Shown: piece after piece, positions 22,770 to 64,000 of the stretch | How the letters are laid out: each line of letters opens with the position of its first letter | Position numbering within the stretch: position 1 is the stretch's first letter | DNA from: Candidatus Oxydemutatoraceae bacterium | GTDB lineage: Bacteria > Pseudomonadota > Gammaproteobacteria > Poriferisulfidales > Oxydemutatoraceae | DNA length: 64,000 nucleotides | Reading direction: 5' to 3' | NCBI GenBank assembly: GCA_965220085.1 | Contig: CBDCOZ010000003.1 | Coordinates: forward strand, 992,001 to 1,056,000 | The notes under the pieces: generated by a model | What the model saw: only the letters and a program-made list of their open reading frames with translations | Told to the model about the DNA's origin: nothing | Databases searched by the model: none | Translations under genes and position numbers: made by a program

Positions 22770-25024
22770 TCTCGCCGCAACGATACACAGCGTCGGAAGA
22801 CGCGCAGAATGATCGCGGCGCACTTGAGGAGGCCCAATGCGCCGAGGGCTTTTTTGAGGGTGTCTTTGCCAAAACGGAAGGTCTTTTTCAGAATGTTTTT
22901 GCCGAGATAGCCGAGGTGAGTAATGTAGTAGTCGGGGTCGGTGGCGGCGACCTGCTTGAGTTGCGCGGATGAGGGGTGGATTTTGATCTTGGCATCGCGC
23001 ATGATGATTGTCTCAACAGCGAACACAGTGAACAGATCGCAAGTATTATTTCCGGCCTTCAAAAAAGGTTGCAGACTTTCAAAATCATCGGCGCTATATA
23101 CTCTGGCGAATTTACCGAGGGTGTGCCGGTACTTATCCAGCGCTGCATCGCCGATGACATAAAGTCGGATTTCTCTGTGATCATCCGTTTGTATTTCACC
23201 CAGAATGTGTCGGTATCTGCGCAGCACCAATGCCTGTGACGGCAGGTGCCGATGCGTAGCGAGCCACGATGCTTTGGGTGCGATATTTGGCAAGTGCATA
23301 CAGTGGTAGATGCCGTTGGAAAATTTGGTCTCTATCCAAGTGCGAGTCTCTAAAGCGTTATGTGTCGCCGGCAGACAGTTATTGCCGAGTTGGTATTGAA
23401 TGTCCTTGGCCAGTGTTTGAATGTGCTTAGCGGCGGGCAATACGGCGCGGTAGCGATGCGCGGCAGCGCGGTGTTCCTGCTCGCGGTTTTCAAAGCGGCG
23501 CACGATTAGCGTTGTGTCGTCGTCAACCGGGACCTCGGCGGCAATGATGCGGCGATCGTTGATGCCTGGGTCCAACTGTGTTTCCATGACCCATTGCGCC
23601 GCTACGCCTCGCTTGTCCGGGCCCGTGCCATAAACTTGCGCTTGCTCCAGATCAACGAAGTCGGCGGGGGAACGTTGTTGTGCTTGTCCCCGATTGTAGC
23701 GGGCGTCCAGATCCCACGGTGTGATGACAGCGACGCGTCCCAGCCGCACCGCTTCGCATAGTAATGTCGACAGCCGTTGTTTGTTGCGCAGCACACCGCC
23801 GGCTTCGGCGTATTCGTGAATCAGGTAATGTTTCCCATCGCAAGGGACGGGTTCGGGCAGTGGCGGTTCGGCAAGCGGTTGAGGTCGAGGTGTCGGCCCT
23901 GATTTCCTTTTAGTAATGTCGGCCAGATAGGGGTTATTCAGTGAGAAGCGGAAAGAATTCAGAAAATCGGTGTTGATGTGCGCGTAGGCGCTGTTGTAAA
24001 TAAGCTCCTCTACAGCATAGACGAAAGTATTATCGGGATCACCGGGAGTAGCGAGAGGGGATCGGGTTGTTTGCAGTGTTCGTCCTTGCAGGTCGGTGCC
24101 ACCGGGCAGGTACTCTTTGTATTCAATTTCTCTGGCGAGCAGATGTTCGTCGTCTGTGATGGCACCCGGCGGCGGCAAGCGGCGGTTCAATTCGGGGAAG
24201 TTGCGGGCGGTGAAGACGCGGTAGTGTTTTTTCAGTTCATCGTGGTATTCGGTGTCTTCCATATTGCTCATGATGTACAGCGGCGCGTTCGGCACCGGCA
24301 GGAAACGGCAGATCATTTTCAGCAATTTGTCAGGGCACACCCAGAATTTCCATTTGTCTTCATAGATGAGGCGATCGCCTAAGCGCAGATGCAAGCAGGC
24401 ATAGGCGCCCGGGGGCATCTGCCGTTGCTTGTCGACAGTTCTGCAGCGTGGCAGAAAGTCCTGATCCGGCGGCGGTGGCAGGCCGTCGCCGAGGACATCG
24501 ATGATGCTTGCCGCCGCTTTGCGGATTGGTGCGGTCGTTTTCAATACTACGTTGTAATCCTGCTTCGGCAGTTTCTTCAAGCCGATATTCTTATACACAT
24601 AATTTGAAGCATTTCCCCATTTGTCACCGAGCAAGGTCGAGGTGTCGCGGATAATCAGCGCGTAACGGAGGTCGCTTTCTTCGTCGATGAAGTGATTTTG
24701 TTCGGCGCCGATGACTTTGATTTCCCCGGCTTTGAAGGCCGCAAAATCCAGATCGTTCTTGTCAATCCAATCCGGCGCCTTGGGGGCGTTGCCCGACTCT
24801 AAAATGCGCGATGCGTCAAGGTCAATCATATCGCCGATTGGGCGCATTTGTCGTTTGCCGAAGTTGTGCATTGAAGCGATGCACAGAGGGTGGAGCACGG
24901 CGATGCGATTCAACAGATAGGCCTCTTTTAGCACCCCCTGAAGAAGATGACGCTGATGCTTGAGTCCGCTCCAGATCTTGGTCGGCTTGGAAACCACATC
25001 GTAATAGAGATAGCGTTTATCCAT
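22766..25024 (-). CDS. Two-domain putative GT-B glycosyltransferase (fucosyltransferase-like), 752 aa
   Basis: Two copies of a YL...EA..L.R.AV...(H/Y)N.G module joined by a Pro-rich linker; YACLHLRLGD and LYIMSN in domain 1. Confidence 0.55.
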   Translation of the reverse strand: MDKRYLYYDVVSKPTKIWSGLKHQRHLLQGVLKEAYLLNRIAVLHPLCIASMHNFGKRQMRPIGDMIDLDASRILESGNAPKAPDWIDKNDLDFAAFKAGEIKVIGAEQNHFIDEESDLRYALIIRDTSTLLGDKWGNASNYVYKNIGLKKLPKQDYNVVLKTTAPIRKAAASIIDVLGDGLPPPPDQDFLPRCRTVDKQRQMPPGAYACLHLRLGDRLIYEDKWKFWVCPDKLLKMICRFLPVPNAPLYIMSNMEDTEYHDELKKHYRVFTARNFPELNRRLPPPGAITDDEHLLAREIEYKEYLPGGTDLQGRTLQTTRSPLATPGDPDNTFVYAVEELIYNSAYAHINTDFLNSFRFSLNNPYLADITKRKSGPTPRPQPLAEPPLPEPVPCDGKHYLIHEYAEAGGVLRNKQRLSTLLCEAVRLGRVAVITPWDLDARYNRGQAQQRSPADFVDLEQAQVYGTGPDKRGVAAQWVMETQLDPGINDRRIIAAEVPVDDDTTLIVRRFENREQEHRAAAHRYRAVLPAAKHIQTLAKDIQYQLGNNCLPATHNALETRTWIETKFSNGIYHCMHLPNIAPKASWLATHRHLPSQALVLRRYRHILGEIQTDDHREIRLYVIGDAALDKYRHTLGKFARVYSADDFESLQPFLKAGNNTCDLFTVFAVETIIMRDAKIKIHPSSAQLKQVAATDPDYYITHLGYLGKNILKKTFRFGKDTLKKALGALGLLKCAAIILRVFRRCVSLRRD

Positions 25025-53179: not shown

Positions 53180-54340
53180 TTATCGGTCAAAAGCGAGTCT
53201 GACGCCGGCGAATATATGCCGTTTTTCGCGCGTGTGAAAATTCCTAAAACTAATCCTGCGGCACTCCGCCTCGCTGAAGCGGCTGGCCCCGCGCAAAGCA
53301 TAGTGCTTGTCGTCAAAAGCGGGGATGGAATATTCGGGATAAGGGAAAGGGCGGAAGTCGGGGTAGGGGTGGAAGGTGTTGTCGCACCACTCCCAAACAC
53401 AGTGCATTTTCTCAAGTTGCCCCGTATGCGCCGCTATTTCCCACTCGTATTCGTGCGGCAGGCGCGCGTTCGCATAGGCGGCAAACGCGCGCGCCTCGTA
53501 ATGGCTTATGCCGTGCACCGGCTCATCGGGCGCCAACGGGCGGCTGCCGTCGCAATGCGTTTGATGCCAACTCCCCCGCGCATCGCAAAACCACCCGTCG
53601 GGGGCGCTCACCTTGGCGGCGGCCAGCCAGCGGCGGCCGTTGCGGTCCCAATGCTCCGTGTTCCGATAGCCGCCGGCGCGGATGAAGGCGAGGTACTGCG
53701 CGTTGGTCACCGGCGTCCGGTTGATCGCAAACGCCTTCGGCGCCACCTCCTGTTGCGGCAACTCATTGTCAAAAGACCAATTATCGTTGCCGCCGACACG
53801 GGTCTGTTGGTGGTTGCCAAAGCAAACCGGCGCGTGTGTGATCGCAGCGGCCTGTGTCAGCCCCTTGCCGGCGCGGCCGCCGCCCTTGCGCGCAAACATC
53901 TGCGTCTTGATCATGCGCATCGTTTCAATGTGTTGCGCGTGATGCTGAATCAGGAACTTGAGCAAATAGTCCTGTCGCATCAACTCGTGCCGCAACAGTT
54001 TTGACGGCGCGGCTTTGAACAAAGCGATATTGTCTTGTTGCTTTTTGCGAATCTGTCGCAGCGCGTCATTCTTCGGCGGCAACTGTCCGCCGCGCTCGGA
54101 GTGCGGGCAATTTTCCGGAATGTACAGCCCCGACAGCGCCGTATCCGCCGGTTGCGCCTCCAGCACGCGCTCGCGCAACCACAGATTCTCTACGAACAAA
54201 GTGTGTCCGACATGCCAGCCGAGCGGACTCAAATGGTCGTGATAGCGATTGCGATACTCATCGTCGCTGACCCCCCGCAGCATGCCGATGAGCGTCGCAT
54301 GGATGGCGCCCAAGCGCGCGGTCAGCCGGTCGCGGTTCAT
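53180..54340 (-). CDS. egtB: EgtB-like sulfoxide synthase (DinB plus FGE-sulfatase domains)
   Basis: SPLGWHVGH, QHHAQHIETM, RLPHEYEWE and FRNFH...HIFAGVRLA motifs; adjacent to egtC. Confidence 0.8.
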   Translation of the reverse strand: MNRDRLTARLGAIHATLIGMLRGVSDDEYRNRYHDHLSPLGWHVGHTLFVENLWLRERVLEAQPADTALSGLYIPENCPHSERGGQLPPKNDALRQIRKKQQDNIALFKAAPSKLLRHELMRQDYLLKFLIQHHAQHIETMRMIKTQMFARKGGGRAGKGLTQAAAITHAPVCFGNHQQTRVGGNDNWSFDNELPQQEVAPKAFAINRTPVTNAQYLAFIRAGGYRNTEHWDRNGRRWLAAAKVSAPDGWFCDARGSWHQTHCDGSRPLAPDEPVHGISHYEARAFAAYANARLPHEYEWEIAAHTGQLEKMHCVWEWCDNTFHPYPDFRPFPYPEYSIPAFDDKHYALRGASRFSEAECRRISFRNFHTREKRHIFAGVRLAFDR

Positions 54341-55101
54341 AGCTTTATGACCCGCGCGGGTCGGTTGCGCTCGGCAATGAGGATGCTGTCTTCCGGCACC
54401 GCCTCCCACGCGGCGGAATCCGTCATGCGCTCGGAGGCGACGGTATGCGCGCCGGCCTCGTAATGCGCATACATCGTCAGCGCCGGCCCGCCGACGGCGG
54501 CGCGCATCACAAACAGCCTGTCGGCCTCGCTGACAATAAAATTCAGAAACGCCTCGCGTGTGCCGCGGCTGCGCAGCCACCGCCACGCCTTTTGCAGGGC
54601 ATCGGCGACGGTGTCGCCGGGGGCCTCGCGCAGGCATTGCCGAATGAGCGCGACGAGGTATTCCGAGTCGGTCAAACCGCCGATGCCCGCCGCGATATCC
54701 GGCTCCAGTATCTTGAGTATCTCGTGGCGCAGGCTGCGGCGGAAATCCGTGACAAAGCCGTTGTGGACATAGAGCCTGCCGCGGTCGCAAAAAGGCTGGC
54801 TGTTCTGCAGGCTGTTGTCAAAGCCCTCGGTGGCGCTTCGCACCATCGCAACCCACAGGTCGCGCTCCAGAGCGCTTGCCAGCCCCGCGAGGTTGCTATC
54901 GCTCCAGATCGGCATGGGGTTGCGATATGTCGCCGGCGCGCCGTCGTCTTGGTACCAACCGAAACCGAAGCCGTCGGCATTGAGTTTGGCGTAGCGGAGC
55001 TCTTTGGGCGCCCACGACTGAAGGTAGAGGCTGTGCTCGGGGGCGATGAGAAAATCCTTGAGCGGCAAGGGGTTTCCCAGATATGCTGCGAGACGACACA
55101 T
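54337..55101 (-). CDS. egtC: EgtC-like class II glutamine amidotransferase (Ntn hydrolase)
   Basis: MCRLAAYLG, NADGFGFGWY, VRSAT, HNG and TDSE motifs. Confidence 0.85.
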   Translation of the reverse strand: MCRLAAYLGNPLPLKDFLIAPEHSLYLQSWAPKELRYAKLNADGFGFGWYQDDGAPATYRNPMPIWSDSNLAGLASALERDLWVAMVRSATEGFDNSLQNSQPFCDRGRLYVHNGFVTDFRRSLRHEILKILEPDIAAGIGGLTDSEYLVALIRQCLREAPGDTVADALQKAWRWLRSRGTREAFLNFIVSEADRLFVMRAAVGGPALTMYAHYEAGAHTVASERMTDSAAWEAVPEDSILIAERNRPARVIKL

Positions 55102-55174
55102 GGTTTGGCAAATCTGCGGAGTATGGAGTATGGGGAGTATGAAAAGAGTTATACCCGACTCGGAAGTGTGAGAA

Positions 55175-55200
55175 CCGACTCCCGCGCAAGGGAGCGCCGG
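55175..55200 (-). terminator. Hairpin just downstream of the adhesin-like gene
   Basis: CTCCC-gcgcaa-GGGAG stem; a paralogous CTCCC-tcgcg-GGGAG occurs near 59334-59348; no clear U-tract. Confidence 0.35.
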
Positions 55201-55210
55201 TCAGCGGATG

Positions 55211-56824
55211 CTATCGCAACGGCCCTTCCAAGAAGAGGCGCAGGCGCAAGCGTATATCAACCCCCAGGTGGATGGTCATCGTATAGGTTTCTGTGCTGTC
55301 TGCGGCGCCATCGTGTACTGTGAAGGTGAAACTGGCGAAGTCGGAGGCGGCGCGGGCGCCAGTCGGGGGATACCAAGTGAAAGTGCCATCCTCCAGATTG
55401 GCAGCGGTCACCGAGGCGCCGTTGGCCACTGCGGTACCGCCATTGCGCAAGGTGCCGGTGCCGGGTGCTATGGTCTCAATGATGGTGATCGCGACCAAGG
55501 CCGCGTTGTTATCATCATCCATGAACGGGAAGTCGGAGACCTTGAAGACGAAGGGCTCGGCTGAGGTTGTGGTTGTGGGCACCTTCACCGAATTGTCGGC
55601 GCTGGTAGGGGCATCGTTGACATTGGCGATGATGTTGCCTGTGGTGCAGCGTCGCTCGCTGTTGGGCGGCGTGAAGTTGTCCTCAAAGGATACGCACACC
55701 CGCACAAACTTGTCGACATGCGCCTGCAACGGCGTGAAAGTGGCGGCGGTGGCCCCGCCAATATCGGCGTAGTTGGGGGGCGCGTCATTGCCCGGAGGAT
55801 CAGCCTGTTGCCATTGCCAGGCGATGGTGGAGCGGTTAATACCAGCATTTCCGTCTGCGACAGTGCCGGTGGTTGCGGTGTGGGTCACATCCTCGTTCCA
55901 GACTGTGCTACCCGCGGGTACCTCCACAGCGGGCAGACCGATGGCCTCCACCTGCGTCGTCGGCCACACCAGGTCTATGGTGATGGTGGCGGAATTGGAA
56001 CTGTCACCAACATCAAGGAAAGTGCCAGCCCGCACAGTGCGCACTCTGAAATCAAAGCTAGTATAGTTGGCCATGGGTGCAGTGACATCATCGGGAAGGA
56101 GGTAGGTCAGGCCCCTGAAAGGGCCTGAAGTTGTCAGACCTGCCTTGGACACTACCGTGTTTGGGGCAAGTACCCTGCTTGATCCCGCATGCAGAGTGCC
56201 TCTGGCGGGTACAGTGGTCAGAGTTATGCGCTCCAGAGTAGCATTGCTATCTTCATCGCTAAAGAGGAAGACATCATCAAACGGGAGTATATAGTAACCA
56301 CCCGTTATAGGCACAGAGATGGTGTTGGGTAGCGCAACCGGGTCATCATTGACATTGGCCACAGCGGTGGCTATCTGCAGGCATCGCTCCTCCTCATTGG
56401 GGGTGGTGGCCATATCCATGAACGACGCGCAGACCTGCAGAAACTTGCCCACCTCATCATCGCCCGGAGTGAATGCGGCATTGGTCGCGCCGGCTATGTC
56501 GGTGTAAGTGCCGCCGTTGGTGTTGGCCGCACTCCATTGCCAGCTGAGGGTGCCCAGGCCATCGGGGTCGGCTATGGTGCCCTGAGCCGCGGTGATGGCG
56601 GAGTCCTCAGTGGGGGTGTTGCCACTGGCGTAGGTGACGGCGGGTGTGCCGGTGGCCGGGCTGTTGGTCTGCGCCTGGGCCGGGTTTGCATACGGCAATG
56701 CAATCAGGGCGAGCAACATCAGCGACCACAGACTCCCGCGGATTCGTGTTGCCCACCATTGCGCGGGAGTCATATCGAAAATTTGACAGATCATATCTAC
56801 GGTTTTAATAACGACATGTTTCAT
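55211..56824 (-). CDS. Secreted adhesin-like protein with two Ig-like plus cadherin-like modules and a C-terminal RLRLRLFLEGPLR tail
   Basis: Signal peptide ending AQA; repeated WQW...Y.DI.GAT.A.FTP...V.KF..VC.SF.D...RC...ANVND.P module; SFTFTVHDG. Confidence 0.7.
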   Translation of the reverse strand: MKHVVIKTVDMICQIFDMTPAQWWATRIRGSLWSLMLLALIALPYANPAQAQTNSPATGTPAVTYASGNTPTEDSAITAAQGTIADPDGLGTLSWQWSAANTNGGTYTDIAGATNAAFTPGDDEVGKFLQVCASFMDMATTPNEEERCLQIATAVANVNDDPVALPNTISVPITGGYYILPFDDVFLFSDEDSNATLERITLTTVPARGTLHAGSSRVLAPNTVVSKAGLTTSGPFRGLTYLLPDDVTAPMANYTSFDFRVRTVRAGTFLDVGDSSNSATITIDLVWPTTQVEAIGLPAVEVPAGSTVWNEDVTHTATTGTVADGNAGINRSTIAWQWQQADPPGNDAPPNYADIGGATAATFTPLQAHVDKFVRVCVSFEDNFTPPNSERRCTTGNIIANVNDAPTSADNSVKVPTTTTSAEPFVFKVSDFPFMDDDNNAALVAITIIETIAPGTGTLRNGGTAVANGASVTAANLEDGTFTWYPPTGARAASDFASFTFTVHDGAADSTETYTMTIHLGVDIRLRLRLFLEGPLR

Positions 56825-56960
56825 GCATGCACGATTAGTGCCCTACTATACCATAAAACGCGCGTCATCCGCTCATGTCTTTGTATCTTGCCGCATCCCT
56901 TGTGCGCACAGCACACGAACCCAATCGCCTTGGACCGCTCATGCCTTTGTATCCTGCCGC

Positions 56961-57080
56961 ATCCCTTGTGCCTCCCCCTGACATTCCCTTCTCCCTGCGG
57001 GATATTCGCAATCGCCGTTTTACAACAGTTTCCGCTGTCGGGCGGACGAGTCGCATACGCAAGCCCCTATTCCGATTATG
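56961..57080 (-). promoter_or_regulatory. Conserved ~120-nt upstream element, copy A (putative promoter plus structured leader)
   Basis: Near-identical to 60527-60645; the minus strand starts with CATAAT followed by hairpins. Confidence 0.55.
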
Positions 57081-57085
57081 CTTGA

Positions 57086-58013
57086 TGGCTGCTTGATACC
57101 ATGACATGTCGGACACCCAGAGCAATATTGCGAGCCTCACGACCGCTTGAAGCTGTGACATGTCGGACACCCAGAGCAATATTGCGAGCCTCACGACCGC
57201 TTGAAGCTGTGACATGTCGGACACCTAGAGCAATGTTGTGTGCCTCACGACCACTTGAAGCCACGACACATCGGACACCTAGAGCAATGTTGTGTGCCTC
57301 ACGACCGCTTGAAGCCACGACACATCGGACACCTAGAGCAGTATCGTGTGCCTCATGGTTGCATGAAGCCACGACACATCGGACACCCAGAGCAACATTG
57401 TGCGCCTCACGTCCGCTTGAAGTCACGACATGCCGGACACCTAGAGCAATATCGTGTGCCTCACGGTTGCTTGAAGCCACGACACATCGGACACCTAGAG
57501 CAATATTGCGAGCCTCACGGACGCTTGAAGCTGTGACATGTCAGACACCCAGAGCAACATTGTGCGCCTCACGTCCGCTTGAAGTCACGACATGCCGGAC
57601 ACCTAGAGCAAACATTGTGTGCCTCACGGTTGCTTGAAGCCACGACACATCGGACACCCAGAGCAACATTGTGCGCCTCACGACCACTTGAAGCCGCGAC
57701 ACATCGGACACCCAGAGCAAACATGTGCCTCATGGCCGCTTGAAGCCACGACACATCGGACACCTAGAACAATACCGTGTGCCTCACGGCTGCTTGATGC
57801 CACGACACATCGGACACCTAGAGCAGTATCGTGTGCCTCATGGTTGCATGAAGCCACGACACATCGGATACCTAGAGCAAACATGTGCCTCACGACTGCT
57901 TGAAGCCACGACACATCGGACACCCAGAGCAAATGCTGTATGCCTCACGACCACTTGATGCCACGACACATCGGACACCTAGAGCAAACATGTGCCTCAC
58001 GGCTACTTGATGC
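57086..58013. repeat. Tandem array of 17 degenerate 52-55 bp units (mode 54 bp)
   Basis: Anchor CGGACACC(C/T)AGAGCA or a close variant at 57110, 57164, 57218, 57272, 57326, 57380, 57434, 57488, 57542, 57596, 57651, 57705, 57757, 57811, 57865, 57917, 57972. Confidence 0.95.
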
Positions 58014-58061
58014 TTCGGTTCGCAGTGTGCTCCCTTCGTGGTGGTGTCAAACCATAACAGA

Positions 58062-58115
58062 ATTCATGACAACTCGTGTTGATGTCGGCAAACCAAAATG
58101 TTTCCGGCATCATTC
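58062..58115 (-). repeat. Solitary inverted copy of the 50-bp unit from the 161-758 array
   Basis: ATTCATGACAACTCGTGTTGATGTCGGCAAACCAAAATGTTTCCGGCATCATTC matches the reverse complement of the array consensus. Confidence 0.85.
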
Positions 58116-58283
58116 AGAAAAAATCACGCCGTGAATCGGCGCTATTAGACCGTTCGTCAGGCAATCAATGCCGCCTGTCTATGGGTTGATCGCGGTCGCC
58201 GAATGAGCGCTATTATCCGGCACGAAGGTTATTGACCATAACCTCTTAATTAGTATTATTATTACAACCCGGAGGGAATAATC

Positions 58284-59084
58284 ATGAAGAAACCAAAAAA
58301 TTTAAAAGCGGAAGATGCGGCGGTTGCTGCTTATGGCTCCGTCGAGAACTTGACCGACGCAGGCTTTGACAAGGAGAAAGCGCGCGCGATTGCCAGCGAT
58401 CTATCCGCACTGTTGCGCAGACACCTGAGCGCTCTGGCAACGAAAAGCGAATTTGCCGAGTTTGAATCAGCGATTAGAGAAAAAATTGCCGAGTTTGAAT
58501 CGGCGATTAGAGAAAAAATTGCCGAGTCTGAATCAGAGATTGGAGAAAAGTTTGCCGAGTTTAAATCAGAGATTGTAGAAAGACTTGCCGAGTTTGAATC
58601 AGCAATCAGAGAGGAACTTGCCCAGCATAGGTCGGAAATCAAAAAAGAAACAGATGAGTTGAAAGCAACAGTAACTAAGTTGCAAGTAACAGTAGCTGAG
58701 TTGAAAGTAATGATAGCCGAGTCCGGGGCAAAAACCCAAAAACAAATAGATGAGTTGAGAGTGCTGATAGCCGAGTCTGGGGCAAAAACACAAAAACAAA
58801 TAGATGAGTCCGGGGCAAAAACCCAAAAACAAATAGATGAGTTGAGAGTGCTGATAGCCGAGTCTGGGGCAAAAACACAAAAACAAATAGATGAGTTGAG
58901 AGTACTGATAGCCGAGTCCGGGGCAAAAACCCAAAAACAAATAGATGAGTCCGGGGCAAAAACACAAAAACAAATAGATGAGTTGAGAGTAATGATATCT
59001 GAGCACACAGCAAAAATCACAACTCTGTTCGTGATAGTCTCCCTTGGGTTAGCGGCTCTTGTTATTGCGGCGCTAACTATATAG
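58284..59084 (+). CDS. DUF1640/CCDC90-like membrane-anchored coiled-coil protein with 11- and 18-aa internal repeats
   Basis: Head LTDAGFDKEKARAI, neck LATKSE, repeats FAEFESAIREK and IAESGAKTQKQIDELRVL, C-terminal TM; RBS GGAGG; AT-rich. Confidence 0.7.
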   Translation: MKKPKNLKAEDAAVAAYGSVENLTDAGFDKEKARAIASDLSALLRRHLSALATKSEFAEFESAIREKIAEFESAIREKIAESESEIGEKFAEFKSEIVERLAEFESAIREELAQHRSEIKKETDELKATVTKLQVTVAELKVMIAESGAKTQKQIDELRVLIAESGAKTQKQIDESGAKTQKQIDELRVLIAESGAKTQKQIDELRVLIAESGAKTQKQIDESGAKTQKQIDELRVMISEHTAKITTLFVIVSLGLAALVIAALTI

Positions 59085-59222
59085 TCTCCCTTGGGTTAGC
59101 GGCTCTTGTTATTGCGGCGCTAACTATATAGTCTCCCTTGGGTTAGCGGCTCTTGTTATTGCGGCGCTAACTATATAGTCTCCCTTGGGTTAGCGGCTCT
59201 TGTTATTGCGATGCTATCTATA
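59034..59222 (+). repeat. Four tandem 47-bp copies of the 3' end of the coiled-coil gene
   Basis: ATAGTCTCCCTTGGGTTAGCGGCTCTTGTTATTGCGGCGCTAACTAT at 59034, 59081 and 59128, plus a variant at 59175. Confidence 0.95.
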
Positions 59223-59355
59223 TTTATTGCACTCTCCGCTTAGGCCTGTGCCGTATCTTGTTCGCGCCGACAGAGAGGGGGCATGTTTCACAGACAGCGC
59301 TCCCTCTCCGGCGTAGCGCAACTGCGCCGACTCTCCCTCGCGGGGAGCGCTCGCG

Positions 59356-59415
59356 CTATCGCAACGGGCATTCAAGGAAGAGGCGCAGCCGCAACTGTGC
59401 GGCGGATTTCAAGGT
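59356..59415 (-). pseudogene. Orphan 3' remnant of a paralog of the adhesin-like gene
   Basis: Minus strand reads TLKSAAQLRLRLFLECPLR*, versus ...DIRLRLRLFLEGPLR* at 55211; followed by a similar hairpin. Confidence 0.75.
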
Positions 59416-60314
59416 CTGCGTTCCCCGTCCATCCACGACAGATCCCGGGATATGACAAGTTCGGTCATGGTTGCGTGGCGGGTGTTTTTCATCGCCACGG
59501 GTCGGGATTCAAAGCCGTATTTGTCGACCAGTTGCCGCACCTCATCGGCATTGTTGTAGGTCATCACGAAGTCGCCGGGCAATTCGGCGCAGAGCGCGAA
59601 CAGCCTGTCATGGTCCAAGCTGTGGTGCGTATACAGGCGGCTACCGGCGTTTTTGCCGCCGACGGTGTATGGCGGGTCTGTGAAGAATGCCGCATCGCCA
59701 TCGCCCATATGGCGGCGGATGCAGGCCATGGCATCGCCATGCTCAAAGCGCAGGCAATGGCGCGCGCGGTCTATGGCGCACAGCCTTTTGGCCAGAGTCT
59801 GCGGATACCATCCGGACATCAGCCCTCTGCCGCCTTCGCCGGTTTTTATCAGCCCGGAGCCACCGGCCAATATGCCGCCGCGCAGGGTGCGATTGCGCAC
59901 TATGGTCTGGAAGGCGCGTTCCCTGACGGAGCCGGGTTGTGCGGATATGACTGCGGTGACCGCATCTCTGGACATCTCAAATGACAGTATGCGCCGGGCC
60001 AGCCATTCGGCATCGCCCGCCATCAGCGTCTGCCAGACCGCCGCTACCGCATCGTCCAGCTCCACCATCAGGGCGCGCCCGGTCAGGCCCTCAAACACCG
60101 CTGTCAGCGAGATGATGCCGCCCCCGGCAAAAGGTTCCACCAGCAATGCCGGCCGCGCCCGACGACCGCCCAGCCATTGCCGCAAGCGCGGCACAAACCA
60201 GGTCTTGCCGCCCGCATAGCGAAAGGGGCTGCGATGCGGCACAGATGCCACATTCACAGGATTGGCAGATACGGAATCCGCATGCGCACCGGCAAAAAGG
60301 GCGACTTGTTGCAT
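59409..60314 (-). CDS. Dam-like (D12 class) N6-adenine DNA methyltransferase
   Basis: SPFRYAGGKTW, LVEPFAGGG and FFTDPPY motifs. Confidence 0.9.
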   Translation of the reverse strand: MQQVALFAGAHADSVSANPVNVASVPHRSPFRYAGGKTWFVPRLRQWLGGRRARPALLVEPFAGGGIISLTAVFEGLTGRALMVELDDAVAAVWQTLMAGDAEWLARRILSFEMSRDAVTAVISAQPGSVRERAFQTIVRNRTLRGGILAGGSGLIKTGEGGRGLMSGWYPQTLAKRLCAIDRARHCLRFEHGDAMACIRRHMGDGDAAFFTDPPYTVGGKNAGSRLYTHHSLDHDRLFALCAELPGDFVMTYNNADEVRQLVDKYGFESRPVAMKNTRHATMTELVISRDLSWMDGERRP

Positions 60315-60316
60315 AG

Positions 60317-60490
60317 TTAATTGCCTCCCAGAGGGGAATCCATGCGCTTGTTCACAGGTTCGGCTTCCAACTTCTCGTCCGCTTTGGCTTGCAAGGTATC
60401 AACAAACACATCCATTTTGCCCACTTTTGGCCGGGTTATGCCACGCAGAGCGGCATCAAATTTTGTATACAGAATCATAAAGCGCGAGCC
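60317..60490 (-). pseudogene. Probable C-terminal fragment of the cognate restriction endonuclease (possibly NotI-like)
   Basis: LYTKFDAALRGITRPKVGKMDVFVDTLQAKADEKLEAEPVNK ends 2 nt before the methylase start; the rest of the ORF runs into the leader repeat; family call is from recollection only. Confidence 0.4.
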
Positions 60491-60526
60491 ATCCGCAATG
60501 TCTTGGGTATCCGGTCTCGCCCCTGT

Positions 60527-60645
60527 ATCCCTTGTATGCCCCCCGACATTCCCTTTCCGCCGGCGGGACATTCGCAATCGCCGTTTTACAACGGTTTCCG
60601 TTGTCGGCGGGCGGGGCGCGTACGCATGCCCCTCTTCCGATTATG
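60527..60645 (-). promoter_or_regulatory. Conserved ~120-nt upstream element, copy B
   Basis: Shares TTCGCAATCGCCGTTTTACAAC and TTCCGATTATG exactly with copy A. Confidence 0.55.
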
Positions 60646-60705
60646 TATCCGCGACCCTATCATGCTAATATAGAGGGCATATCATCCGACAGAAACCCTT
60701 CTCTC

Positions 60706-61710
60706 ATGACAGACAGCACTCAGCCGTCGCTTCATACGTTGCAGAATATCGATGCGGAAGCTTGCGCGCCTTCTTTGCGCGACGATGTGTTGCAAGGGCT
60801 TTTCGCCGATCAAAAAACGTTGCCGTCAAAATACTTCTATGACGAGAAGGGTATGCGGATATTCGCGCGGATTTGTCAGTCGGACGAATACTATCTGACC
60901 CGCGCCGAGAACCGAATGTTGAAGGAGAAGGCCGCGGCGATCATCGCTTCCGCACAACCTCAGAATATCATTGAGTTGGGCAGCGGCTCATCGGACAAGA
61001 TACGCTTTTTTCTGGACGCTTGCGGTCGGCGCAACATACGCTGCAAGTATTGGCCGTTGGATGTGTGTTCGGAAGCGCTGGCGACGATGACCGGCATCTT
61101 GGCGGCGGAGTACCCGTGGTTGCGTATCAACGCTTTGGTCGGAGATTACGGCAATGGCTTGGAGGCCGTCGGCCTGCCGCAAAACGAGCGCAATCTGGCG
61201 CTGTTTATGGGCAGTACGATCGGCAATCTGACCCATCCTCAGGCGGTTTCCTTTTTGCGCCGGATTCGGCTCTTGGTCGGCGCGCAAGGGCGGTTGTTGG
61301 TCGGCATGGATCGGGTGAAAGATGTCGCGACGCTGACCGCCGCGTATAACGACGCGCAGGGTTTGACCGCGCAATTCAACATGAACATTCTTGAAGTGCT
61401 GAATGGTCGCATGGGGGCGAACTTTGAAGCGGACAAGTTTGAGCACCGCGCGGTGTATAACGAATCGCAAAGCCGGATAGAGATGCACCTTGTTTCAAAG
61501 GAAGAGCAGAGCGTGTATTTTGAAAGTTTGGACAAGCGCCTCGCTCTGCGGCGGGACGAAACGATTCGCACCGAGATCAGTCGCAAATTTTGCGATGACG
61601 AAATTGAATCGTTGCTGAGCGAAAGCGGATTTGCGTTTGAGCGACACTATGTGTCCGATAACGGTTATTTTTCTTTGGCGCTGGCCAAGAATGCGGGGGA
61701 GGAGGCTTGA
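60706..61710 (+). CDS. egtD: L-histidine N-alpha-trimethyltransferase
   Basis: KTLPSKYFYD, EYYLTRAE, ELGSGS, FMGSTIGN, AYNDAQG, RIEMHL and TEISRKF motifs. Confidence 0.93.
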   Translation: MTDSTQPSLHTLQNIDAEACAPSLRDDVLQGLFADQKTLPSKYFYDEKGMRIFARICQSDEYYLTRAENRMLKEKAAAIIASAQPQNIIELGSGSSDKIRFFLDACGRRNIRCKYWPLDVCSEALATMTGILAAEYPWLRINALVGDYGNGLEAVGLPQNERNLALFMGSTIGNLTHPQAVSFLRRIRLLVGAQGRLLVGMDRVKDVATLTAAYNDAQGLTAQFNMNILEVLNGRMGANFEADKFEHRAVYNESQSRIEMHLVSKEEQSVYFESLDKRLALRRDETIRTEISRKFCDDEIESLLSESGFAFERHYVSDNGYFSLALAKNAGEEA

Positions 61711-61711
61711 G

Positions 61712-62410
61712 ATGGCCGAAGTGCTTGTCGTCGATGATGATCCGTCCATATGCGATATGCTTTGCTTCTTGTTGGGCAGCGAAGGGTATCGGGTGCGCAA
61801 GGCGTATGACGCTCGCGAGGCGTTGCGGCGCGTCGGAGAAAAGGTTCCGGATCTCGTGCTGGTCGATTGGATGATGCCCGGCATGAACGGGGTTGAGTTG
61901 ATTCGCTGTTTGCGCTCCGAGCCGACCACACGGCGGTTGCCGATCATCATGCTCACCGCCAAAGACAGCGAGAGCGACAAAGTCGAAGGGCTGGTCGTCG
62001 GCGCCGATGACTATATCCTGAAGCCGTTTTCCAATCGCGAACTGTGCGCGCGTGTCAAAGCCCTTTTGCGCCGCGCCAAGCCGCACAAGACGCAAGAGAA
62101 AGTCGTCTGCAAAGACATGACCCTGGACCCGCAGTTGCATAGCGTCAATATCAACGGGGAGGATATTGTCATCCCGGCGACAGAGTTTCGTTTGTTGCAC
62201 TTCTTGACCGCCCACGAAGGCCTGGTATTTTCCCGCCGCCAGTTGTTGGACGGCGTTTGGGGCACGGAGAGATTTGTCGAGGATCGCACGGTCGATGTGC
62301 AGGTCGGCAGGTTGCGCAAAACATTGGCGCAGAACGGCAAGCGGCATATCGCCCAAAAGGTTCGGACTATCAGGGGCATCGGTTACAGTTATCGCGGCGA
62401 TGGCGCTTGA
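61712..62410 (+). CDS. phoB: PhoB-like OmpR-family response regulator
   Basis: DWMMPG, PIIMLTAK, GADDYILKPFS, EFRLLHF and VEDRTVDVQVGRLRK motifs. Confidence 0.85.
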   Translation: MAEVLVVDDDPSICDMLCFLLGSEGYRVRKAYDAREALRRVGEKVPDLVLVDWMMPGMNGVELIRCLRSEPTTRRLPIIMLTAKDSESDKVEGLVVGADDYILKPFSNRELCARVKALLRRAKPHKTQEKVVCKDMTLDPQLHSVNINGEDIVIPATEFRLLHFLTAHEGLVFSRRQLLDGVWGTERFVEDRTVDVQVGRLRKTLAQNGKRHIAQKVRTIRGIGYSYRGDGA

Positions 62411-62460: not shown

Positions 62461-63564
62461 ATGAAAATTCTCTCGCATTTGCGGCAGCGGTTTGCATTGC
62501 CGTCGGAAGATGTTCCCGCCTCCGGCGGGCGGGATGCGGCGGCGCTTGATCGCGAGCTGTTATTGGTTGCCGGTCTTGAATCGGCGGGCGACGGTTGCGG
62601 CCTGATTCTGGTCAAAGACAAGGGCAACATCGTCTGGTTTAATGAGCCGAGTCGCCGCTGGTTTGCTTTGTCCCGGGCGCGGGATATAGGCGAGAACATT
62701 ACCCATCTGATTCGCAACCCGACATTCTTGGAACGCTTTAAGCAAGGAAACTTTGGCGAGATGATGATATTCAGAGAGATTAACCCCGGTCTGAGCGCGG
62801 GCATCAGCATCTTGCCGTGGAGCGCCGATTACCGGTTGATCATCGTCCATGATTTTTCTCAGCGGCAGAGGCTTGAGGACTCCGGTCGCGAGATCATGGC
62901 GAATCTGTCGCACGAGTTGCGTTCTCCGTTGACGGTGATCAAGGGCTATCTCGATACCCTGAGTACGATCTATGACAGCGGCAAAGACAAGGATATTTCC
63001 GCCGCGCTCCGCAACATGCTCAAGCAGTGCGTGCGGATGCAGCAGTTGGTCGAGGATACCTTGTTGCTCGGACGCTTGGAAACGAGCGAGGTGCGCGCGG
63101 ATGAACTTGAGACGGTGGACATTCCGCTGCTTGTCGACGGCCTGACCGGCGACTTGCAAGAAGTGTGGCCGGGGCGGGAGATTGAGATCAGCGGCGAGAG
63201 GCATAGCATGAATTGCATCCGCGCCGACATATACAGCGTGCTGAGCAATCTGCTGAGCAACGCGCTCAACTATTCTGGCGCCGACAGCACGGTGCGATTG
63301 GAGTGGCACACACGGGACGACGGTTTTTATTTTGCTGTGACGGATCGGGGAATCGGGATTGAGGCGACACATATCCCGTACCTGAGCGAGAGGTTTTACC
63401 GCGTGGACAAAGCGCGGTCAAACGCTACCGGCGGCGTCGGTCTGGGCTTGGCAATCGTCGCCCGCACCCTCGACCGTTACGGCGCTCGGCTCAGAATCGA
63501 CAGCGAATACGGCGTCGGCAGCACCTTCTCGTGCATCTTTCCGCGCGAGCATATCGTCCGCTGA
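62461..63564 (+). CDS. phoR: PhoR-like sensor histidine kinase (PAS-HisKA-HATPase)
   Basis: NLSHELRSPLTVIKGY, NLLSNALNY and ERFYRVDKARS..TGGVGLGLAIV motifs. Confidence 0.85.
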   Translation: MKILSHLRQRFALPSEDVPASGGRDAAALDRELLLVAGLESAGDGCGLILVKDKGNIVWFNEPSRRWFALSRARDIGENITHLIRNPTFLERFKQGNFGEMMIFREINPGLSAGISILPWSADYRLIIVHDFSQRQRLEDSGREIMANLSHELRSPLTVIKGYLDTLSTIYDSGKDKDISAALRNMLKQCVRMQQLVEDTLLLGRLETSEVRADELETVDIPLLVDGLTGDLQEVWPGREIEISGERHSMNCIRADIYSVLSNLLSNALNYSGADSTVRLEWHTRDDGFYFAVTDRGIGIEATHIPYLSERFYRVDKARSNATGGVGLGLAIVARTLDRYGARLRIDSEYGVGSTFSCIFPREHIVR

Positions 63565-64000
63565 CGGCGCATAGAATCGCCGGCGGCGTCGGTTTGCGCT
63601 TGGCAATCGTCGCCCGCACCCTCGACCGCTACGGCGCTCGGCTCAGAATCGACAGCGAATACGGCGTCGGCAGCACCTTCTCGCGCATCTTTCCGCGCGA
63701 GCATATCGTCCGCTGACGGCGCATAGAATCGCCGGCGGCGTCGGTTTGGGCTTGGCAATCGTCGCCCGCACCCTCGACCGTTACGGCGCTCGGCTCAGAA
63801 TCGACAGCGAATACGGCGTCGGCAGCGCCTTCTCGCGCATCTTTCCGCGCGAGCATATCGTCCGCTGACGGCGCATAGAATCGCCGGCGGCGTCGGTCTG
63901 GGCTTGGCAATCGTCGCCCGAACCCTCGACCGCTACGGCGCTCGGCTCAGAATTGACAGCGAATACGGCGTCGGCAGCGCCTTCTCGCGCATCTTTCCGC
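63428..64000 (+). repeat. At least four tandem 152-bp copies of the phoR 3' end including the stop codon (runs off the window)
   Basis: Units start at 63428, 63580, 63732 and 63884; TGA stops end at 63564, 63716 and 63868. Confidence 0.97.

Follow-up and report, generated by a model that had tools for sequence, protein, structure and literature searches.

Recombination and decay within an expanded family of tagged surface proteins as the probable origin of the egtC-egtD island in a Candidatus Oxydemutatoraceae bacterium

Surface-protein families such as Neisseria pilE/pilS, Anaplasma msp2, and Borrelia vlsE are diversified by segmental gene conversion. In C-terminal sorting systems (LPXTG/sortase, PEP-CTERM/exosortase, GlyGly-CTERM/rhombosortase, and the C-terminal domain, CTD, of the type IX secretion system, T9SS), one short C-terminal signature is carried by many unrelated secreted proteins of one genome, and in integron gene cassettes variable content lies between recurring ends. 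Mobile restriction-modification (R-M) units, as described in excerpts of Furuta et al. (2010; PMC2853133), insert with a long target duplication or by allelic substitution. Here, we compare these systems with a locus in a 64,000-nucleotide (nt) stretch of DNA from a Candidatus Oxydemutatoraceae bacterium (assembly GCA_965220085.1, contig CBDCOZ010000003.1, positions 992,001 to 1,056,000; hereafter the window), in which the genes egtC and egtD are separated by an island with two slots, each framed by a leader and a short conserved tail around different cargo. An earlier note on this DNA had proposed that these conserved ends belong to a multicopy surface-protein family and act as recombination arms that capture cargo and place it under the family leader, like an integrase-free cassette system. 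Bare coordinates below are window positions, and C1, C2, and C3 are contigs of this genome (2.49 Mb).

Taken as a whole, we consider that the locus is probably best explained by recombination and decay within the family, and not by a dedicated gene-capture system. The egtC-egtD island is likely a 5.6-kb piece of a hugely expanded Sec-exported surface or secreted-protein family of this genome, and slot 2, in all likelihood, is the shell of a dead family member, an R-M module fragment having taken the place of its body. In the explanation that we propose, a family gene would be built of a 5′ module that comprises the upstream region and the signal peptide, a body that varies, and an invariant tag of 14 translated residues. 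Slot 1 would be an intact mosaic member, and slot 2 a dead one in which the leader and a mutated, untranslated tail survive, a 1,048-bp NotI-like/D12 fragment having replaced the body and left an orphan methylase behind. The shared frame of the two slots would then come from common descent, protein-level selection on the tail, and ectopic recombination among ~200 dispersed copies, with junctions mainly in the tail.

A six-frame scan of the genome gave 224 matches to the core motif of the tag, and 216 of them stand exactly one residue before a stop codon. Of these 216 tails, 187 close open reading frames (ORFs) of at least 100 amino acids (aa), the longest of 15,185 aa, which together amount to 159,270 aa, or 19% of the genome; the number of tails and ORFs bears out the earlier suggestion of a multicopy surface-protein family. 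The C-terminal peptide reads ...LRLRLR[LIV]FLEGPLR-stop (14-residue consensus [LI]RLRLR[LIV]FLEGPLR), and R-L-R-[LIV]-F-L-E-G-P-L-R is invariant in the 187 ORFs. Every tail codon shows synonymous variation, and TAG, TAA, and TGA are all in use. A strict degenerate DNA pattern of the tail gave 214 matches in this genome and none in a reversed control; among relatives, four sister-genus genomes had 16, 2, 2, and 1 matches, and the 36 others searched had none. The sister-genus tail is IRVRVKVFLEGPLR or LLRVKLFLEGPFR, with quite different codons. Because of the synonymous variation, the three stop codons, and the conservation with other codons in the sister genus, the tail is a translated feature under protein-level selection and not the DNA arm that had been supposed.

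Among 17 representative tagged proteins, we found cadherin (21 times), subtilase with Calx-beta, He_PIG, PPC, and InlB B-repeat domains, and 8 of the 17 had no Pfam match. The tagged proteins have N-termini that, judged by eye, resemble signal peptides, and many family ORFs have their own starts. Assuming roughly 2,400 genes, a figure that was not counted, the tag would sit on about 8% of genes. Searching one genome per prokaryote species gave six stretches with the tag, of which three lie in metagenome-assembled genomes (MAGs) titled uncultured Candidatus Porisulfidus sp., and the other three are single matches in unrelated MAGs, within a rough expectation of ~8 chance matches. The motif (FLEGPL and longer strings) was found in no published paper in a literature search. 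One short signature on many unrelated secreted proteins is what the tag has in common with the C-terminal sorting signals, but unlike the tripartite ones, it lacks a hydrophobic helix and a basic tail, consisting of 14 residues of alternating Leu/Arg followed by FLEGPLR, and it stands near the N-terminus in three proteins. Most likely, the tag is a surface-docking or export signal, which may act through an amphipathic Leu/Arg beta-strand. No cognate enzyme for it was found.

Two candidate partners were considered and rejected. A link to autotransporters is not indicated, as PF03797 had 0 matches at E <= 1e-5 in this genome and in 12 genomes of the same family that were searched; matches occur in all four searched genomes of another family in this order and in one of three from a third family, and no tag-like motif was seen at the passenger-barrel junction in eight autotransporter loci that we read. 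An extra Omp85 transporter was likewise discarded, each of 21 genomes having exactly one PF01103 match.

The three proteins with the tag near the N-terminus (C1:36355-38001, C1:23865-25292, and C3:1171407-1173515) carry PLRLRLRVFLEGPLR followed by GGSSS or GGSGC, ~25 residues past a shared signal peptide and not at the C-terminus. Two of them continue with PPC domains and one with a protease-like region; this last protein had no Pfam match and no sequence match in the PDB, and the label trypsin-like would rest on our own reading of its ...AYHC... and GGSSGG motifs. At C3:629431, a Q takes the place of the stop after the tail, and a further 160 codons are open in this frame, with a ferredoxin-like Cys motif among the last of them. 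Tandem re-duplicated tails extend past real gene ends at C3:513746-514214 (period 156 nt), 908960-909464 (period 168 nt), 1303683-1303923 (period 117-123 nt), and 23797-23855 (period 58 nt), leaving strings of orphan tails.

Slot 1 is an intact, mosaic member of the family. Gene A (55211..56824, minus strand), known from the ORF list and profile searches, encodes a 537-aa secreted cadherin/ZirU-like protein that closes with ...DIRLRLRLFLEGPLR-stop, and its tail A (55211..55255, minus strand) is in frame, with codons for IRLRLRLFLEGPLR and a TAG stop. Gene A is a patchwork from at least four paralog sources: its 3′ 800 nt have their best paralog at C3:1578.4-1579.2k (80-100%), the segment 56290-56700 at C3:787k, 901k, and 1244k (90-96%), and the 5′ end at C3:1580k, 1732k, and 1943k (95-97%). 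For the segment 56110-56290, no close paralog was found in the genome. The proximal 5′ module (56825..56934, minus strand) contains a putative extended -10 box (TGgTATAGT), a promoter call made from sequence alone, and one copy of a 66-nt duplication; positions 56826-56907 (~64-84 nt aligned) recur at ~7 other genomic places at 86-98% identity by BLAST. The 66-nt segment is directly duplicated within 56869-56971 (37 nt at 95%), giving leader A two copies of a CACAAGGGATGCGGCA.GATACAAAG block.

In slot 2, the tail is present in decayed form. Tails A and B match at 88% over 40 nt (55210-55249 with 59355-59394), but tail B (59352..59394, minus strand), a degenerate, untranslated remnant (LRLRLFLECPLR-stop), reads QLRLRLFLECPLR-stop past the methylase stop, in a different frame that is open for only 42 codons upstream, which agrees with the earlier description of a tail common to both slots and out of frame in the second. 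The G-to-C change that gives ECPLR in tail B is also found in the copy at C3:1318155. Since the duplicated unit C3:1318155-1319581 carries the same change, tail B was probably already a dead remnant moving together with a neighboring coiled-coil unit, and it does not appear to be a functional arm paired with leader B.

Next to tail B lies a 1,048-bp fragment of a type II R-M system (59425..60472, minus strand), which is identical at 893 of 1,048 positions, without gaps, to C2:118026-119073; 60472-59425 is thus 85% identical to a NotI-like endonuclease and D12 methylase module (C2:119073-118026). In the C2 module (Pfam PF12183 and PF02086), the endonuclease gene is itself split into two ORFs, followed by the D12 methylase. 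Comparison with this copy identifies 60320-60472 (minus strand) as the last 51 codons of a NotI-family endonuclease gene, followed by an intact 301-aa D12-class methylase (59409-60314, minus strand; with FAGGG and DPPY motifs) whose Ka/Ks against the C2 paralog is 0.26. With 51 endonuclease codons left beside a full-length methylase, slot 2 holds no complete type II system, and the methylase is an orphan. The short gene fragment and the Dam-like methylase that had been noticed in slot 2 are both there, the former being the end of an endonuclease gene and the latter of the D12 class. The left junction of the insert coincides with the position of TGgTATAGT, a likely extended -10 box, in leader A and its paralog, and the right junction lies 30 nt before tail B; no flanking duplication accompanies the insert. 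Because the left junction falls at this putative box, the family promoter is probably broken in slot 2, which makes it doubtful that the cargo has been placed under the family leader.

Leaders A (56935..57090, minus strand; the distal upstream block) and B (60473..60670, minus strand; homologous to the family 5′ module up to the junction 60472-60473) align at 79% over 81 nt (56961-57041 with 60527-60607) and at 85% over 40 nt (57041-57080 with 60606-60645), or 84.3% over 121 nt by BLAST, with homology extending on both sides to roughly 57150-56860 and 60700-60480. A leader common to both slots is therefore real, but the genome has only four full-length copies: leader A upstream of gene A, leader B upstream of the methylase fragment, a copy at C3:1580222 upstream of a close gene A paralog that is broken into two ORFs that overlap, with a tail at its end, and a copy at C3:1319438 upstream of an HIT-family gene with no tail on that strand. 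Homologues of this HIT gene were found in 16 of 18 relatives searched (54-76% identity). With four full copies only, one of them before a tail-less core gene, the leader does not generally go together with the tail. A 7-bp inverted repeat around an AAA spacer is common to all four leaders (57017-57035 and 60582-60600, minus strand); leader B has it in perfect form (ACAACGG AAA CCGTTGT), the other three contain G-T positions, and the repeat could be an operator or an RNA hairpin. We rejected the leader as a structured RNA, as its folding was inconsistent (z +0.81 for leader A and -2.78 for leader B) and four copies are too few for covariation.

Rearrangements between family copies gather at the tails. 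We compared all tail pairs in 60-nt blocks in register with the tail and, because pairs are not independent, also clustered the flanks. Across the tail, 158 pairs were similar upstream only, 57 downstream only, and 23 on both sides; one block further into the gene, the corresponding counts were 0, 19, and 116. Among the downstream-flank clusters, 27 of 30 were joined to at least two unrelated gene ends. Tails are preferred rearrangement junctions between family copies. They have a mean pairwise identity of 79%, and 199 of the 216 have a partner with at least 25 nt of exact identity, a length in the range that is enough for RecA-dependent exchange. The findings support recombination arms at the conserved ends as a by-product of family structure: the part of the earlier proposal that stands is the recombination itself, seen in the breakpoint excess at tails and the mosaic gene A, and the part that does not is an organized capture-and-expression system. 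One fifth of a small symbiont genome thus consists of secreted proteins with one C-terminal peptide unreported in the literature, and the same peptide is where rearrangements between genes start and end, which offers a way to approach surface formation and renewal in a sponge-associated bacterium, and a possible new surface-targeting signal.

Like the families that diversify by gene conversion, this one has conserved ends, a variable middle, mosaics of paralog segments, and breakpoints piled at the conserved end. Unlike them, it has 187 full-length ORFs and no single expression site fed by promoterless, silent partial cassettes; it also takes up a large share of the genome, and its host belongs to a sponge-associated symbiont lineage and is not a pathogen. 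The integron analogy drawn by the earlier note holds for variable content between recurring ends. It does not hold for the machinery, as IntI is absent near the array, the end is a translated, in-frame peptide rather than an attC fold, and each gene has its own 5′ module. In agreement with the absence of integrase and transposase that had been stated, profile searches of the window gave no match to PF00589 (integrase), PF00665 (rve), or PF01797 (Y1 transposase). PF00589 has three matches in the genome, and the nearest tyrosine recombinase lies at C3:972386, ~75 kb from the island.

The tails and leaders could instead be homology arms in their own right, with circular or linear DNA that carries one arm integrating by homologous (Campbell-type) recombination, so that foreign genes would be captured and expressed in a cassette economy without a recombinase. 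We regard this as unlikely. Slot 2 does have a foreign fragment between leader and tail, tails are breakpoint hot spots with long exact matches to one another, and a second locus offers the footprint expected of a single crossover: at C3:587584-590114, a 2.5-kb insert with a DUF4928 gene and a C5 methylase stands in place of a family gene body, flanked by a 147-bp, 97% direct repeat (C3:587437/590115) that begins inside a tail. Counting this insert as a mobile R-M unit (R plus M, < 20 kb, duplication > 30 bp, empty site in a related genome) assumes that DUF4928 is the endonuclease. However, the 28 tails with fewer than 100 open codons upstream comprise 16 tandem copies or frameshifted family genes and 12 without family sequence upstream, and only 2 of these 12 have an R-M module directly upstream, namely slot 2 and C3:587584-590114. 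The genome has 44 methylase loci (PF01555, PF00145, PF02086, and PF02384), an unusually dense R-M load. Placed at random, 7.8 +/- 2.4 of the 44 would fall within 1 kb of a tail and 10.9 +/- 2.8 within 2 kb, and the observed counts are 7 and 11, so with both elements this dense, their adjacency is as chance predicts. The rarity of the leader and its place next to a core gene, the mere ~84% likeness of leaders A and B, the lack of a flanking duplication and the loss of the putative -10 box in slot 2, and the protein-level selection on the tail all speak against homology arms as well, and the integrase-free cassette system is not supported. A no more probable alternative makes the R-M modules the active party, with later deletions that disarmed the endonuclease also taking the host gene body. 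As with the mobile units in the excerpts of Furuta et al. (PMC2853133), where insertions flanked by long direct repeats and allelic substitutions come with no other mobility genes, we see a mobility-gene-free module with a long direct repeat (147 bp) and a part-module that replaces resident DNA (slot 2); the many methylase loci and the endonuclease gene truncated in slot 2 and split in C2 also fit. Unlike those units, as far as the excerpts go, slot 2 lacks a flanking target duplication and keeps only 51 endonuclease codons, and the 147-bp repeat is preceded by ~60 nt of a different family gene's 3′ end, which is more in line with a tandem gene having been replaced than with a target duplication alone. 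This alternative also overlaps with family recombination and decay, differing only in which party drives the change.

Two further accounts have little in their favor. That the tail is a non-coding DNA repeat at gene ends, of the repetitive extragenic palindromic (REP), miniature inverted-repeat transposable element (MITE), or terminator type, and the peptide incidental, is very improbable. Such a repeat would agree with the position-specific codon bias in the tail, the tail copies repeated in tandem every 58-168 nt past real gene ends, and the heptamer CGCGAGC or CGCGAGT right past the stop in 61 of 216 tails (with the related TGCGAGT in 18 more), but 187 of the 216 copies lie in frame at the ends of ORFs that are 100 aa or longer, in each case one residue before the stop, their variation is synonymous, and the sister genus keeps the peptide with different DNA. 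No Y1 (REP-associated tyrosine, RAYT) transposase (PF01797) was found, and an Rfam search of 54500-61500 gave no match at E <= 1. Still harder to credit is an assembly artifact produced by repeats. The region is repeat-rich and short-read contigs break at tails, but both slot-2 junctions lie in contigs of the short-read run X1 with zero differences (59252-59911, from tail B into the methylase, and 60439-61800, across the endonuclease fragment, leader B, and egtD), and a 151-nt piece of run X2 covers 60392-60542. Run X1 may be the source sample, in which case it is not independent support for the junctions.

Some points weigh against family recombination and decay as the whole explanation. AGA/AGG make up 25% of Arg codons in gene bodies and 0 of 561 at the three invariant Arg positions checked, suggesting that some DNA-level homogenization or constraint acts on the tail too. 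Two R-M modules at family gene bodies, the second with the 147-bp repeat, hint at something more regular than chance. The partner of the tag was not found, and the order of events in slot 2 that we propose cannot be reconstructed, as there is no same-genus genome for an empty-site comparison. A possible, though doubtful, extension would put the tail to double use, as a helix-free docking or export tag and, through ~200 DNA copies with shared 5′ modules, as a set of portable homology arms that reshuffle adhesins and occasionally take in foreign genes by single crossover; slot 2 and the 147-bp-flanked module would then be its footprints. A protein tag, paralog recombination, and the chance insertion of one of 44 methylase genes can together produce ends that stay constant around different cargo, and no dedicated capture machinery is needed.

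Small CTCCC/GGGAG hairpins follow both tails (55177..55197 past tail A and 59336-59357 past tail B, both on the minus strand). They fold no better than shuffled sequences (z -0.46 and -0.34, respectively), neither has a T-run after it, and neither was called terminator-like; the hairpin that had been described for both slots is thus present but weak. Hairpins of this type are found after 26 of the 216 tails, compared with 51 of 5,000 random windows.

Between the slots, a 54-bp tandem array, a coiled-coil gene, and, in slot 2, the methylase lie where they had been placed before. Tandem-repeat analysis gave 16.9 copies of the 54-bp unit (57091..58001), an amplified form of the 5′-most leader segment, and of the 17 copies of the unit motif GGTGTCCGAYRTRTC in the genome, 13 lie inside this array. 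The coiled-coil, transmembrane (TM)-anchored gene (58284-59084, plus strand; 58119..59084 with its conserved upstream region) is AT-rich (GC 0.42-0.45 against ~0.6 around it), has a weak CCDC90-like Pfam match, and belongs to a family of 13 copies in the genome. A 47-bp tandem repeat in four copies (59034..59223) runs across its 3′ end, recurs at C3:1318326-1318466, and is followed by a conserved segment downstream of tail B (59224..59351, minus strand; including the hairpin, which reaches 59357) that shares 80-90% identity with other copies of the coiled-coil gene. Tail B and its downstream flank form one unit with the 47-bp repeats, the coiled-coil gene, and a leader, and the duplicate at C3:1318155-1319581 is 83-92% identical. 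For this duplicate, we considered an insertion between ccmA and the HIT gene, but synteny was uninformative, as in none of 11 relatives' loci are ccmA and HIT less than 1.5 kb apart. The coiled-coil copies (window 58119-59350 and 12 other places on C3) include ~165 nt upstream and ~250 nt downstream and encode a C-terminal TM helix, and several stand tail-to-tail with a tagged gene.

The island is flanked on the left by egtC (54337..55101, minus strand; TIGR03442, E 7.3e-62) and on the right by egtD (60706..61710, plus strand; TIGR03438, E 1.7e-101), whose ATG at 60706 was placed by reading the sequence. The two genes are divergent and adjacent in 5 of 11 relatives' loci, with aligned starts 153-375 nt apart; as these starts are 5,673 nt apart in this genome, the interval is a true island. 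On the minus strand, it reads leader B (~60670-60473), an 86-codon ORF, the D12 methylase, tail B with its hairpin, and the 47-bp repeats, followed by the coiled-coil gene (on the opposite strand), the 54-bp array, leader A, gene A, and the second hairpin. Beyond the island, a 152-bp unit lies over the 3′ end of a phoR-like histidine kinase gene (63428-64000) in 3.8 copies with 97% matches, forming a gene-end tandem array that runs past the end of the window.

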